From IMG/VR virus record IMGVR_UViG_3300031519_006967, positions 36,828 to 100,827 of that record: DNA of 64,000 nucleotides; one strand, 5' to 3'. This stretch comes from a virus. Both the position numbers and the translations under genes were made by a program. Positions 7,196 through 43,990 of the stretch are shown here, one piece after another (position 1 is the stretch's first letter; the number at the start of each line of letters is the position of its first letter). Under the pieces are notes generated by a model, which saw only the letters and a list, made by a program, of their open reading frames with translations, was not told the origin of the DNA and did no database searches.

Positions 7196-7224
7196 TTGAC
7201 AATACTAAAGTCATGGGGTAATAT
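7196..7224 (+). promoter_or_regulatory. Sigma70-type early promoter
   Basis: TTGACA (7196-7201), 17-nt spacer, TAATAT (7219-7224). Confidence 0.7.
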
Positions 7225-7371: not shown

Positions 7372-8823
7372 ATGAACACCCATAACGGAGCAAACGCAAA
7401 TTATAGCACAGGACACCCACTAGTGGAGTTCTTCGGAAAAGCAGGATCACTCTTTGATAAAAAGAAGGCTAACCAATCATATTACGGGAATGAGGCAACA
7501 GCCTTAGACTTGTTTTTAAACGCATGGGAAGTAGACAAGGAGAAGGCATTTAAACTCCTTCTTTGGTGTCGTGACGTTCGTGGTGGTGCCGGAAATCGAA
7601 GTGGATCACGATCTATTCTAACTTGGCTCGCAGGAGTTGACGCGGATTGGATCAATCTTAATATTTCTAAAATCCCTGAACTTGGTCGTTGGGATGACCT
7701 TATCGCATTGGTGGGAACTCCATGTGAGTCGTCTGCCCTTGAATTATGGGCATCTGCCATTAATAATAAAGATGGTCTTGCATGTAAGTGGTCTCCTAGA
7801 GAGAATAAGGCAGGACGCACCGTAGCTAAGAAACTTCGTAAGCTTTTGGGGTTTACCCCAAAGGAATATCGTAAGTGGTTGACTGCTAATACCCAAGTTG
7901 TTGAGACTGCAATGTGCAACAAAAACTGGAACGAAATCAAGTTTGGGGCAGTTCCATCCGTGGCTATGTCACGGTATGGTAAGTCTTTCCGAAAGCATGA
8001 TGAAACTCGGTTCACGCAGTATTTGGAAGATGTTAAGAACCCAGAATCTAAAGAGAAAATCAACGCGGGAGCATTGTTTCCTCATGACATTATGAAGGCA
8101 CTACCATCTACAGGTCGCGGTTGGTCCGACATTAAGTATGGTAAGTCTGACGTAGCTGACGCTCAATTTGAGGCTATGCCAGATTTTTTCGACACTGATA
8201 TGCGGGTTATGCCTATTATCGATACTTCTGGTTCGATGTGTGTTAACGTTGCGGGGGATACCTCAGCATCCGATGTTGCTATTTCACTAGCAATGTATGC
8301 ATCAGATCGCCTTGGTGAGGACAACCCATTCTACAGAAAGTTTATTCCATTCTCCACTAAGGCTCAGTTCTTTGATTGGAAGAATGCTGATGGATTTTCT
8401 GACGGCGTGGGGCAATTCGCCGAATCTACTGGTTACGGTTGGATTGGATCAACTAACGTTGCTTCTGCTTTTCGCCTATTGCTAGATACTGGAAGCTTCC
8501 TAAATGTTACTTCTGAGCAGATGCCTAATACGCTTCTAATTATCTCTGACATGCAGTTTAATTCTGGAACTAGTGGAGATGGAACGGAGGTTAGAAATCT
8601 TATTAAAGAGTGGACAGATCGCGGCTTTGACGAGCCAAATGTAGTATATTGGAACACTTCAGGTTATGCTGGTGCGCCTGACTCCGCGTATAGTGATAAG
8701 ACGGGCATGGTCTCAGGATTCAGCCCATCTATTTTGAACGCAGTATTTAATGGAACTGATTTCACCCCACTGGGGATTATGGAACAGGCTATCGAGAAGT
8801 ATGAGGTAGTTATTCCTGATTAA
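7372..8823 (+). CDS. DUF2828-family TROVE-like/vWA protein (Ro60-like architecture)
   Basis: RDVRGGAGNR, GRWDDL, KWSPRE, VPSVAM, INAGALFPHDI, MIDAS DTSGSM, ISDMQF, VYWN, VSGFSP. Confidence 0.85.
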   Translation: MNTHNGANANYSTGHPLVEFFGKAGSLFDKKKANQSYYGNEATALDLFLNAWEVDKEKAFKLLLWCRDVRGGAGNRSGSRSILTWLAGVDADWINLNISKIPELGRWDDLIALVGTPCESSALELWASAINNKDGLACKWSPRENKAGRTVAKKLRKLLGFTPKEYRKWLTANTQVVETAMCNKNWNEIKFGAVPSVAMSRYGKSFRKHDETRFTQYLEDVKNPESKEKINAGALFPHDIMKALPSTGRGWSDIKYGKSDVADAQFEAMPDFFDTDMRVMPIIDTSGSMCVNVAGDTSASDVAISLAMYASDRLGEDNPFYRKFIPFSTKAQFFDWKNADGFSDGVGQFAESTGYGWIGSTNVASAFRLLLDTGSFLNVTSEQMPNTLLIISDMQFNSGTSGDGTEVRNLIKEWTDRGFDEPNVVYWNTSGYAGAPDSAYSDKTGMVSGFSPSILNAVFNGTDFTPLGIMEQAIEKYEVVIPD

Positions 8824-8846
8824 TTTATCGTTGTATTTTTCATAAT

Positions 8847-8945
8847 AATCAACGCTAAAATCCAGCCATGACTACCGCGCTTAAGAACTCCGATCTCGCC
8901 ACTGACTCCGACGCGGTAGGCGTTGGCTGCGATGCCTTGTTCGGC
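8847..8945 (-). mobile_element. attC-like integron recombination site
   Basis: Minus strand: R'' GCCGAAC, 5-nt spacer, L'' ATCGCAGC (extra base at position 4), inner stem CTACCGCG/CGCGGTAG, L' GCTGGAT, 6-nt spacer, R' GTTGATT. Confidence 0.75.
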
Positions 8946-9251
8946 TTCTTATCTGGGACTACTAGCGAGCAGCGATGTGGGATAATGCCGCAACCCTCTC
9001 CTGTGTGCCTCGCTATCACGCCACCGCAAGAAAGAGTGATCGAGGCTCTAGCAATACTGGAACAACTTAAAGAATGCACGTCTCCGATCTCATCCGTGCA
9101 ACTAATGAATCAGATTACGGAGTGCCTTCGTCCTGTTGAATCTGAACTAGAGGAAGTGCGGCTCCAATGCTCTAAACTCCGCCAATGGGGTGAAGCGTGG
9201 AAAAAACGAACCAAGCTCGAAATAGAATTAAATTCTCTGCCGAACAGATAA
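8868..9251 (+). CDS. Hypothetical coiled-coil protein on an integron-like cassette
   Basis: 127-aa ORF, visibly more GC-rich than its flanks, starting inside the attC-like site. Confidence 0.6.
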   Translation: MTTALKNSDLATDSDAVGVGCDALFGFLSGTTSEQRCGIMPQPSPVCLAITPPQERVIEALAILEQLKECTSPISSVQLMNQITECLRPVESELEEVRLQCSKLRQWGEAWKKRTKLEIELNSLPNR

Positions 9252-9255
9252 AAGA

Positions 9256-9291
9256 AAAACCCGCCCCTCTTAATTGAGTTGCGGGTTTTTT
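9256..9291 (+). terminator. Rho-independent terminator
   Basis: AAAACCCGC...GCGGGTTTTTT. Confidence 0.75.
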
Positions 9292-17828: not shown

Positions 17829-18512
17829 ATGAGATCATTTAAACAATTTATAATAACCGAATCTGTAGATGGGTTCTTCGACGATTTAGAAAATTGGGGA
17901 GTTTTACACTTTGATGGCAGACTGTATTATAAGGCATATGCCAATTCCACGGTTACTGTCGAATTAGGTGGCTGGTCTGGAGGTCTGCGATTATCATACA
18001 TTAAAGCAACCCCACATGGATCGGGTGCTGGGTCTATGTTCATGTCCGAGTTAGTTAAAAAGGCGGATGAACATAATATCAAGATTACTGGATCGGTTCA
18101 GTCGGAGGAGGGTGGACCATCCGACCAAAAATTACGCGAATTTTATCGAAAATTCGATTTTGAAATAGATGGTGAAGATATAGAAAGAACTCCAAACGCT
18201 ACCTCACCAGTTATTGTTTTACGTGGTTCAGGTTCACCCAAAAAGGCTAGAAGCCATATAGCAGAGTTATCTGAAAAATACGATTGGGTTGTTCATGGAG
18301 AACACGAATCTGGGTGGGAAAATTGGGAAGATGCTTTAGATTCGATTTGGGACAATGCCGAATTAGATGATGATGTTGAGGATTTCAAAAATATGGTATA
18401 TGGTGAATCTGGTGATGATTCCGATTTAGCCGAATTTATCAACGACGAATTAGAGAAGTTAAACTCACCATATAGTGTATCATTTACTGGCGAAAGTGAA
18501 GATGATTATTAA
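17829..18512 (+). CDS. GNAT-like protein with CTS-like N-terminus
   Basis: GSGAGSMFMSELVKKAD acetyl-CoA-loop-like motif, LREFYRKFDF; begins MRSFKQFIITE. Confidence 0.6.
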   Translation: MRSFKQFIITESVDGFFDDLENWGVLHFDGRLYYKAYANSTVTVELGGWSGGLRLSYIKATPHGSGAGSMFMSELVKKADEHNIKITGSVQSEEGGPSDQKLREFYRKFDFEIDGEDIERTPNATSPVIVLRGSGSPKKARSHIAELSEKYDWVVHGEHESGWENWEDALDSIWDNAELDDDVEDFKNMVYGESGDDSDLAEFINDELEKLNSPYSVSFTGESEDDY

Positions 18513-26972: not shown

Positions 26973-28580
26973 TTATGCATTAGCTTGTCCACTATTCAAG
27001 AGGTGTGACTCTCTGCTGATAGCAACTGCCCCAGTTATTATCGGGCTAAGGGGGTGTCCACCCTCAAATCTTACCCAAACGTGTCCACCCACGTCAGGAA
27101 TTGATATAAATCCATTTGGTAGGTTTCCCTTAATTGCTCGCATCACTGGGTTAGTGTTAGCAATCATAGTATTCCCTCCTTTAATTTTATTTGGATCGCT
27201 GTTAGGTTCTCCTGAGCCATTCCCCAATCTAGTCCCACTTTCTGGTCCAGTAGATAGTGCTTCTATTCCGTTTTCTGTTTTAGAGTGTGAGTTTCCTTCA
27301 GATGATCCGATATCTCCTTGTACATTTGGGAATTCGGGTGGTAGTATTGGTTCTTTTTTAGAAGCACTAACCCCAGTCGCAGATTCCGCATTGGTGGGTC
27401 CACTAGCAAATGCACTGGTTAGAGGGTCGTTACTAGGGAACAACGCCGAGCTTGGTCCACTATTATCGCCAACATCTCTGGTAGGTCCGCTAGTTCCATC
27501 TGGGAGTGTAAACGTTTCGGTTTGTCCACTATTTGTAGCTCTAATTGTTTTGGTTCCATTCCTAGTGGACGCTACTGTTATTTCTTGAAAATCTTCTGTT
27601 ATTGTTCTTGGGTCAACACTAGTTGGAGTTAGTTTTGAATTTTTAATTGTATTAGTATAAAAGGTCTCTTTAGTTGCACTAGGTAATTTTGACCAAGTTG
27701 GTCCCTTGTATGGGTAAACTATAACAGTTTGGCTACCACCAGCATGAGTTTTGTTCCACTCTTTTACTGGTAGATGCACGTCAACTACAGGAGAGTTAGA
27801 ACCATTGGCTCTAGCTGCTGTCTTAGCCACCACAGCACTCCCAGTATCTGCCGCGACATAGCGTCTAGTAAATCCATCAGAGTCCGCCACGTCCACATAC
27901 GAACCATATGGTATCTTGTTGGGATCAACTGCCACATTCCCAATGACATCAATCCCTCCATTTCGAAATGAACCACTCTCAGTTCCACCTTCCTTGTTGG
28001 CGAAATAATCAGGTGAGTTGTGTACAGTTTTTCCTACTGCGGAAAACGGATCACCAACTGCCTCATCCGCGTGATAAAATGTAGTGTATACTTCTGTCTT
28101 CTCGGGTGGACCGTGTTGGTCACTGGGAGCATCCTCCTGTATTTGTGGCTGGGTCTTACTACCAGTATCAGGACTCTCCGAAGACTCCTTTTGTGGCGCT
28201 GTAGACTCTTCCCCCACTGGTTCTGTGTCTTCTGGCGCTGGCGGGTTGGGTGTCTCAATGGTTCCGCTTTGCTCAATGGTTCCGTGGTCAGCTTCAGCCC
28301 AATAATATCCGGTTCCCACTGGACCAAATAAGGGTTGCTCAACTTCCCCCCAAGGTAGACTCTCTTTAAGTCTTTTTAATATATTTGCATCTAAGTTCGA
28401 ATCTAAATTACTACCTAAGAATTTGAAGAATTTATCATCTTTCAGATTATCATTCCAATCATCATATAGAGTCATGCTTATATGCGGAACATATACTTTC
28501 ACTCTCCCCATATTTTCAGGATCATTATTTTGAATAATAATACCTTTATATGTTCCAGAATATCTTTGGCCTGTTTTCAT
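26973..28580 (-). CDS. gp5/VgrG N-terminal OB-fold protein with inserted 3D domain
   Basis: YKGIIIQNNDPENMGRVKV...IPDVGGHVWVRFEGG enclosing VAVDPNKIPYGS...AADTGSAV...VVDV. Confidence 0.8.
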   Translation of the reverse strand: MKTGQRYSGTYKGIIIQNNDPENMGRVKVYVPHISMTLYDDWNDNLKDDKFFKFLGSNLDSNLDANILKRLKESLPWGEVEQPLFGPVGTGYYWAEADHGTIEQSGTIETPNPPAPEDTEPVGEESTAPQKESSESPDTGSKTQPQIQEDAPSDQHGPPEKTEVYTTFYHADEAVGDPFSAVGKTVHNSPDYFANKEGGTESGSFRNGGIDVIGNVAVDPNKIPYGSYVDVADSDGFTRRYVAADTGSAVVAKTAARANGSNSPVVDVHLPVKEWNKTHAGGSQTVIVYPYKGPTWSKLPSATKETFYTNTIKNSKLTPTSVDPRTITEDFQEITVASTRNGTKTIRATNSGQTETFTLPDGTSGPTRDVGDNSGPSSALFPSNDPLTSAFASGPTNAESATGVSASKKEPILPPEFPNVQGDIGSSEGNSHSKTENGIEALSTGPESGTRLGNGSGEPNSDPNKIKGGNTMIANTNPVMRAIKGNLPNGFISIPDVGGHVWVRFEGGHPLSPIITGAVAISRESHLLNSGQANA

Positions 28581-41824: not shown

Positions 41825-42220
41825 ATGAAAGACACTTTTGGACACCTTAGAAATATACTTCAAAATAAAGAACAATATACCATTAAGGATGGTGAGGACT
41901 TCGTTCCATTTATGATACAGAGGTGGTGTTCGATGGTATCACCAGAACTTTGTTTTATTTTAAATGAAACTATAAACACACACGCTTCCGCCATGGAAGA
42001 TAAACAAATGTGGCATGATGGATTTTTAGCAATGGTTCCAGCCGTTGGATATAAGAGAATTTCCTATATGAAAAAGGCTAAAAAGGAACATGCAGATGAT
42101 GTTAAGCTTTTAGCTAGAAGATTAGAAATTTCTTGCAGGGAGGCAGCAGTAATGGTAGAGTTAGATAAAGATATGAACAAAAAGGAAAAATCAGTTGAAG
42201 TGTCCCGCAAGCGATCTTAA
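41825..42220 (+). CDS. Clamp loader small subunit (T4 gp62-like)
   Basis: FGHLRNI, FVPFMIQRWCSM, LARRLEISCREA. Confidence 0.75.
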   Translation: MKDTFGHLRNILQNKEQYTIKDGEDFVPFMIQRWCSMVSPELCFILNETINTHASAMEDKQMWHDGFLAMVPAVGYKRISYMKKAKKEHADDVKLLARRLEISCREAAVMVELDKDMNKKEKSVEVSRKRS

Positions 42221-43570: not shown

Positions 43571-43990
43571 ATGGGTGATACTTTTGGTTATGATATGAAT
43601 AGCCTCCAAACGTTGATGAAAAGCAATGTCGTGGAGGCTAGATTTATGAGACGACATAACAAACCTGGTTGGTCAGGCGTTAGGGGAGCATTTGTAACCA
43701 CAAATTTTGAATTACTTAATGGGGATTTGGGGTTTAGTGCATTACACTTCAAACCACCTAAAGGCGCTGGTATGGGGTATAATCACCGTAAGTATAATTT
43801 AGTGGTTGGTTGGGATATTTTCCGACAAGAATACCGAGTTTTTGCAGCAGAGGGTTCAATTGTTAGAAATTTCTATGATGTGTCCAGCCCCGAAGAACGA
43901 GCCGCATACTGGTTGATGTTTAGGGAGCGAGTTCTACAGTTGACTAGTCGCGAGAAGTTAATATATATGGGCTATACTGGACGTAAATAA
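43571..43990 (+). CDS. Hypothetical protein (SH3/WYL-like)
   Basis: NVVEARF...VVGWDIFRQEYRVF. Confidence 0.55.
   Translation: MGDTFGYDMNSLQTLMKSNVVEARFMRRHNKPGWSGVRGAFVTTNFELLNGDLGFSALHFKPPKGAGMGYNHRKYNLVVGWDIFRQEYRVFAAEGSIVRNFYDVSSPEERAAYWLMFRERVLQLTSREKLIYMGYTGRK

Follow-up and report, generated by a model that had tools for sequence, protein, structure and literature searches.

Introduction

Integrons and their gene cassettes have already been reported from phages. Qi, Rajabal, Ghaly, Tetu and Gillings (2023, PMC9892861) described integrons and 17 CALINs in phages, with attC sites and cassettes in temperate as well as virulent ones, and found that IntI1 recombines attC sites from virulent phages. 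Their survey covered sequenced phage genomes and called for at least two attC sites, and the terms 'antisense', 'opposite' and 'single attC' do not occur in the text of that paper (PMC9892861). For bacterial genomes, Loot et al. (bioRxiv 10.1101/2022.09.11.507474) defined SALINs and described attG insertion at GWT sites.

The locus analyzed here lies in a stretch of 64,000 nucleotides (the window), which forms the final 64 kb of a 100.8-kb IMG/VR virus record with a completeness of 47%. The host of the cassette is the genome of an uncultured marine/brine phage. We consider it probable that 8853-9244 is a single integron-type cassette without a nearby integrase (a SALIN) in a phage, composed of a genuine attC and a small gene on the bottom strand of that site.

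Results

Position and box structure of the candidate attC site

The candidate cassette lies among genes of the plus strand, which follow the order RecA-like gene, DUF2828/DUF7788 gene, ORF127, hairpin terminator, small ORF and DnaB-like helicase gene (Table 1). The terminator hairpin folds with -20.4 kcal/mol (z -5.2), a value that none of 200 shuffles equals, and was overlooked by a simple terminator scan owing to its long loop. A promoter-like site of the DUF2828 transcript was identified at 7196-7224. Since no promoter-like site was found on the plus strand within 8800-9250, ORF127 is probably read through from DUF2828.

Table 1 Features of the candidate cassette and its surroundings in the window.
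Feature	Position	Strand	Basis or remark
DUF2828/DUF7788 gene	7372-8823	+	Stop at 8823
Left half of predicted target: spacer past the DUF2828 stop, ending ...AATCAA	8824..8852	+	Sequence and reconstructed empty site
attC site, 99 nt (top strand = minus)	8847..8945	-	Sequence and models R1, R2
R'' GCCGAAC	8945-8939	-	GTTCGGC on plus at 8939-8945
Spacer AAGGC, 5 nt	8938-8934	-	Between R'' and L''
L'' ATCGCAGC, extra base G at 8930	8933-8926	-	Plus strand reads GCTGCGAT
Second unpaired base A	8923	-	Past L'', followed by the variable region
L' GCTGGAT	8866-8860	-	ATCCAGC on plus at 8860-8866
Spacer, 6 nt	8859-8854	-	Between L' and R'
Hybrid R' GTTGATT	8853-8847	-	AATCAAC on plus at 8847-8853
Predicted mobile cassette, 392 bp	8853..9244	-	G|TT at both ends on minus; on plus AA|C at 8852|8853 and 9244|9245
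ORF127 (P0001), cargo gene, 127 aa	8868..9251	+	attC bottom strand
Far-end core GCCGAAC (minus G|TTCGGC)	9239..9245	+	TTCGGC is the cassette's half of R' (predicted); codes for Pro-Asn of SLPN
Intrinsic terminator, now ending the DUF2828-ORF127 transcript	9254..9291	+	Fold; A-run before the stem, U-run after it

All motifs listed in an earlier, sequence-only reading of the locus, including the far-end core, were found in place on the sequence. The conserved end triplets of attC sites are present on the minus strand, as AAC in R'' and GTT in R'. Between the R boxes, ATC-G-CAGCCA-A pairs with TGGCTG-GAT, with the extra bases on the '' arm, and every column of this arrangement can be aligned to the consensus of 77 real sites. 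[quoted passage not shown]

The sequence-only reading had taken this geometry as canonical; the boxes are indeed there, but the geometry by itself is no signature. A scanner that required, in order, AAC, 5 nt, an 8-nt box containing a single bulge, a variable region, the complementary 7 nt, another 5-6 nt and GTT reported 4 sites in the window against 3.1 +/- 1.7 in dinucleotide shuffles, which is not above chance. When the reverse complement of R'' within 1.5 kb was added, 0.34 sites per shuffled window were found, and 30% of the shuffles had one. Folded as single-stranded DNA together with its flanks, the integrated site is also unremarkable (z -1.26). Furthermore, R'' and the far-end box double as conserved codons in the homologues (GTTCGGC as LFG, GCCGAAC as LPN), so that coding constraint and site constraint are inseparable at these boxes. 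On these three grounds (codons, fold and geometry) the site was initially read as a chance occurrence, a reading that was dropped after comparison with real attC sites. The significance of the site comes from its covariance-model match and the clean controls, not from box geometry.

Covariance models built from bacterial attC sites

A homologue of ORF127 with accessible DNA lies in a Phycisphaerales MAG, and Planctomycetota genomes were therefore sampled as a source of attC sites. TIGR02249, the integron-integrase model, scored above its cut-off in 77 of 401 sampled genomes (handles G006-G400), and 35 regions were taken from the cassette side of these integrase genes. The regularly spaced elements in the regions display the classical attC layout and strong folds; some arrays reach 18 or more attC sites per 12 kb (L186). 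RNAalifold on MAFFT alignments of short sites recovered the R box only, and the first model (R1) was consequently built with a hand-set structure on an alignment of 22 longer sites beside integrase genes. This structure is 89.5% paired, 15 of the 23 pairs covary with changes on both sides, and no shuffle or slid register comes near. R1 retrieved 77 sites in the Planctomycetota arrays, 76 of them on the strand predicted from the position of the integrase; the remaining one is a true, nearly palindromic site read in reverse. The second model (R2) was rebuilt from these 77 sites. Both models derive from one phylum, and the window sequence is in neither.

With R1, filters off and both strands of the window searched, 8945..8847 was the best match at 20.3 bits, followed by an unrelated hairpin at 18.1 bits. 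With the purpose-built R2, the same stretch scored 35.2 bits on the minus strand across model positions 1-88 of 88 (E ~2e-7, from a quick and rough calibration), with exactly the ends that had been proposed from the sequence. The runner-up in the window reached 13.2 bits, leaving a gap of 22 bits below the candidate, which also passes the default search filters. In the R2 alignment the spacer AAGGC is identical to that of some real sites, and the candidate thus resembles real attC sites at positions that the scanner ignored (AAGGC and GCAGCCAACGCC). Only the outer three R-box pairs are broken, as is expected because the neighbor of this cassette is not another cassette.

The controls were empty. 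Across 1.02 Mb of viral and metagenomic loci from elsewhere, R2 with default filters gave no match at E <= 10, and in the remaining 36.9 kb of the phage record it gave nothing above 12 bits. The E-values being rough, the weight rests on the score gap and these empty controls. Collectively, the comparison indicates that 8847-8945 is a genuine attC-type site, with predicted recognition by IntI.

The record thus holds one attC site (one in the window and none in the other 36.9 kb). The earlier statement that the window lacks an integrase extends to the entire record, as TIGR02249 has no match at E <= 0.001 across the 100.8 kb (47% complete). A complete integron would show intI and attI beside the cassette; what is found here is one attC with no integrase match nearby, as in a SALIN.

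Two further hairpins of the window were considered and set aside. The stretch at 43654-43685 (13.2 bits, E 0.27) was taken as noise within the coding ORF 43571-43990; it is a 32-nt palindrome, ACATAACAAACC...TCAGGCGTTAGGG, that looks like attC R boxes and spacers minus the middle, probably by chance. The 38-nt hairpin at 42077-42114 (18.1 bits with R1, 13.1 with R2) has neither the AAC nor the GTT triplet and does not qualify as an attC.

Predicted cassette limits and insertion point

Read on the minus strand, the predicted unit starts at G|TTCGGC (9245|9244) and ends at ...TTTAGCG|TTGATT (8853|8852). When R' is rebuilt with TTCGGC from the far end, it becomes complementary to R'' GCCGAAC at 7 of 7 positions, and the fold improves from -34.6 to -39.9 kcal/mol, which is within the per-nucleotide range of real sites. 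The signature of a once-circular cassette that the sequence-only reading had pointed out is hence borne out by both box and fold. Deleting 8853-9244 in silico reproduces the junction predicted there, ...ataataatcaa|cagataaaag..., in which the DUF2828 stop is followed by a short spacer and the terminator. The core of this reconstructed target, CTG|TTGA, fits the 5'-GWT-3' consensus. The segment is also as GC-rich as had been noticed: it has 51.0% GC, compared with 38.1 +/- 3.5% in the window as a whole, and this value is unmatched among some 3,200 windows of the same length. The sole other stretch of the window nearing 50% GC is 27880-28380, inside a 535-aa minus-strand ORF (26973-28580).

The homologues of ORF127 provide a view of the far end at the protein level. 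Up to ...EINSLPN only two residues distinguish P0002 from P0006, after which their ends are unrelated; one of them stops one residue later and the other continues for 18 unrelated residues. P0003 and P0004 likewise diverge directly past SLPN. The Asn codon of SLPN (9243-9245) is the AA|C of the predicted junction, and a break at this point is what one cassette in several contexts would look like. The predicted cassette limits are thus supported by the 7/7 R box, the GC step and the divergence of homologues at the junction, while the target site and the G|TT crossover are reconstructions that we infer from these data.

The uninterrupted target was also sought in other sequences. No near match to the empty site was found in the phage collection. 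A single-protein query found no close DUF2828 relatives in IMG/VR, and an alignment query returned viral and JGI loci that are at most 50% identical at closest, not syntenic and without an empty site; DUF2828 relatives of 62-64% identity exist. Contigs from four runs of other studies are at least 99% identical to the locus and bridge both junctions, and within the contigs of those four runs, to which the conclusion is limited, no joint skipping 8853-9244 was found. All populations sampled carry the insertion, which is taken as fixed within them.

ORF127 and its protein family

The ATG of ORF127 adjoins L', and its first 26 codons are attC sequence; at the other end, the last two sense codons span the junction and the stop lies in phage DNA. 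In canonical cassettes a promoterless ORF lies on the attC top strand and the attC follows its stop, whereas ORF127 lies on the bottom strand and starts inside the attC, and the cassette is therefore an inverted one. Inverted cassettes, for example those with toxin-antitoxin genes, are known in chromosomal integrons as a minority. The placement of the ORF given in the sequence-only reading (start at 8868 inside attC, antisense to attC and co-oriented with the phage genes) is real, and the same layout recurs in viral arrays, as described below.

ORF127 has no match in Pfam or PHROG and nothing usable in the protein atlas. A profile search identified 61 representative relatives at E <= 1e-3, mostly of 85-130 aa, which start with MTSE..GI..QP..TCP.ID and share a conserved LE..R...IR.WGQEWK further on. 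Because most relatives begin at the position aligning with residue 32 of ORF127, its first ~30 residues are regarded as a subfamily extension. In the fold model, residues 1-29 have pLDDT below 50 (disordered) and residues 54-123 form a helical hairpin, so the attC-encoded part, the subfamily extension and the part modeled as disordered coincide. ORF127 is accordingly modeled as small and helical, and to date its family has been encountered chiefly on viral contigs.

Members of the family occur on ten IMG/VR contigs and in Vibrio phage vB_CoeS_P1, in the latter among small genes near RNase H and primase/helicase genes. The 114-aa member of this Vibrio phage (L003:3001-3345, PV206818.1) is annotated as 'tRNA-His guanylyltransferase', a label that looks wrong. 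The first scans of the viral and metagenome collections for the cargo family returned nothing, and that of the genome collection returned a single locus (L002), on the Phycisphaerales MAG contig JBAZUW010000001.1, where the homologue shows 67% identity. No member of the subfamily was detected in 400 sampled Planctomycetota genomes, the MAG holding this locus excepted.

R2 detected no attC in L002. The homologue there is flanked by a 21-nt direct repeat, CTCCTAACACCRATGCCCCAC (L002:63-90 and 441-468), which contains a core-like CCTAAC and the start codon; the gene that follows is an N6_N4 DNA methylase beginning with the same repeat. L002 may be a cassette that lost its attC.

attC arrays on other viral contigs

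When R2 was applied to the loci holding members of the ORF127 family, five strong attC sites were detected in one of them (L006). This locus is part of IMGVR_UViG_3300050029_000207 (G402), a 58.7-kb genome with direct terminal repeats that is rated 100% complete and encodes a portal, a DNA polymerase, a primase-helicase and an exonuclease, with no integrase. G402 carries eight strong attC sites, all on one strand (L193:125-2703; L195:12663-13120 and 18228-18326). Its 127-aa family member (L006 2218-2601) starts inside the attC at 2185-2296, is antisense to it, and ends on the TAA of the next R box, GCCTAAC. Another attC of G402 encodes MTTARDSGLTTPIGVGS and the attC of the window encodes MTTALKNSDLATDSDAVGVG, and the N-terminal 'leader' is therefore attC sequence. 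Within the first 20 kb of G402 the motif AAAATCTATG is confined to the initial 2.7 kb, where it has five occurrences, located before cassette ORFs and inside two attC loops.

A narrow pattern drawn from the attC sites of the window and of G402 led to seven more viral contigs, and all seven carry arrays, with up to ~20 attC sites on a contig. The viral sites, that of the window included, score 35-55 bits against a model built from bacterial sites only, with both unpaired bases on the correct arm. Among these contigs, IMGVR_UViG_3300046484_000054 (G407) is 71.6 kb long, has terminal repeats, is rated complete and encodes virion structural and clamp genes. It bears 18 attC sites at E <= 0.01 in ~8 kb on one strand (L214:16219 to L215:4276), a large viral cassette array that lacks an integrase. 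On IMGVR_UViG_3300025162_000136 (G405; L211:11097-13421), an IntI-like gene scoring 263.6 bits against a cut-off of 265 lies divergent to three attC top strands, that is, in the canonical position, with the cargo ORFs pointing toward the integrase gene and not away from it; possibly, a complete integron is present on this viral contig. No match to the G402 portal protein was found in five other array-bearing contigs, which are therefore not close relatives of G402. For the array contigs other than G402 and G407, viral status is that assigned by IMG/VR alone.

The orientation of the ORFs separates the two groups of arrays. Of 31 intervals in bacterial arrays, 26 have their longest ORF on the attC top strand (antisense to sense 5:26), and of 33 intervals in viral arrays, 25 have it antisense to attC (25:8), 13 of these ORFs starting inside attC; the counts come from crude gene calling, with the longest ORF taken per interval, and the ratio is a lead and not a measurement. 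Antisense viral cargo with Pfam support comprises two N6_N4 DNA methylases, a PAPS-reductase domain protein and a weak radical-SAM match. We suggest tentatively, as an idea that we hold to be plausible but somewhat short of probable, that phages keep and exchange their own pool of 'inverted' cassettes. In such cassettes the gene would lie on the attC bottom strand, with a start codon and leader (MTTA...GVG...) encoded by attC and a stop often provided by the R-box TAA. The cassette of the window would have moved between unrelated phages, possibly via a phage-encoded integrase, and complete phage genomes would hold arrays of 8 to ~20 cassettes with methylases and other accessory genes.

Discussion

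Proposed origin of the cassette and alternative explanations

The observations suggest the following route. An integron integrase, from the host or from a co-infecting integron-bearing phage, would excise the cassette from a donor cassette array as a circle with R' = GTTCGGC. The folded bottom strand of its attC would then recombine with duplex DNA at a secondary G|TT site of the attG type (consensus GWT), located in the spacer that separates the stop codon of DUF2828 from the terminator, and the product would be resolved by replication, as established for attC x attI. ORF127 would be expressed by read-through from the promoter-like site of the DUF2828 transcript, ending at the old terminator. 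Of the interpretation given in the sequence-only reading, the attC cassette is supported; that an integron integrase made the insertion at a GTT site, and that this integrase came from the host, are matters that we still infer, the former because no empty site was found. As G405, with the same attC type, carries an IntI-like gene, a co-infecting phage is as open a source of the integrase as the host.

The attC might be genuine and the module nevertheless have entered without an integron integrase, by illegitimate or short-homology recombination with a cassette-bearing segment of a phage or host, the G|TT ends being coincidental. Phage mosaicism is common, ordinary phage morons offer a parallel, the homologue in L002 sits between direct repeats with a core-like motif, and Qi et al. 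raised off-target recombination at GTTRRRY-like motifs as a route (PMC9892861). We hold this entry to be unlikely, because AA|C lies precisely at both ends, a complete R box is restored by the far end, and the break point of the homologues coincides with that end; from 7-mer frequency, a 7-mer complement within ~400 nt is estimated to occur in only ~2-3% of cases.

Still less likely, in our judgment, is that the viral repeats form a phage-specific hairpin family that is merely attC-like and serves another enzyme or another role, such as a 5' mRNA structure or a translation-start module. This would explain ORFs that lie on the 'wrong' strand and start inside the element, a layout that sets the viral arrays apart from the bacterial ones in the orientation counts above, and the cargo family does occur on viral contigs, while the bacterial integrons sampled yielded no member of it. 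The viral sites, however, match the bacterial-integron-only model and have their unpaired bases on the arm where they belong, an IntI-like gene just below the cut-off lies in the canonical divergent position on one viral contig, and attC sites of cultured virulent phages are recombined by IntI1 (PMC9892861). Finally, an imperfect hairpin in the 5' end of an ordinary phage gene that meets loose attC rules by chance would agree with the scanner counts, the shuffles with a far-end complement and the unremarkable fold, but is very improbable in view of the 22-bit gap, the empty 1 Mb of control DNA, the likeness to real sites at positions outside the scanner and the same gene family in the same layout in the attC array of another phage.

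On the preferred reading, a single integron cassette in a phage, the machinery with which bacteria capture cassettes would also move genes into phage genomes. With both of its junctions legible and a donor-type R box that can be rebuilt, the cassette of the window may be the cleanest natural case so far of one integron cassette having entered a phage genome. It brings together two recent findings, that of attC sites on phages and that of insertions at GWT sites driven by an integrase, and offers a concrete substrate on which both could be tested jointly. The wider pattern may matter more: up to ~20 attC sites per phage genome, with genes opposite to the bacterial norm that often start inside attC. 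If it holds true, phages own a cassette pool, and integron integrases are a route of gene exchange among phages as they are among bacteria.

Comparison with known systems

Phage morons share with this unit an extra gene of foreign composition, placed between a gene and its terminator and co-expressed with its neighbors (here a predicted expression). Morons are usually described with their own promoter and terminator and without a defined recombination site; the unit of the window, in contrast, has an attC and no promoter-like site. Its site has the same organization as those of cassettes in sedentary chromosomal integrons (IntegronFinder definition, Cury et al. 2016, PMC4889954): the boxes R''/L''/L'/R', spacers that stay unpaired, a '' arm with unpaired bases, a terminal variable region and bounds at G|TT. 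No description of a systematic inverted layout of phage cassettes was found in the literature searched.

Like SALINs and attG insertions (Loot et al.), the unit is a single attC cassette outside an integron, its predicted G|TT target fits 5'-GWT-3', and its expression would depend on a resident promoter; those cases are in bacterial chromosomes, whereas the present one is in a phage genome and its insertion is deduced. Like the phage CALINs (PMC9892861), the locus presents attC and cassette in a phage with no integrase nearby, and methylases are shared cargo, with DNA methyltransferases in the phages of that survey and N6_N4 methylases in the viral arrays found here. What sets the window apart is a cassette that stands alone, has two readable junctions and belongs to an uncultured phage. 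In conclusion, the capture of cassettes by phages as such was already reported in 2023, and what is new here is a well-resolved single-cassette case in a phage.
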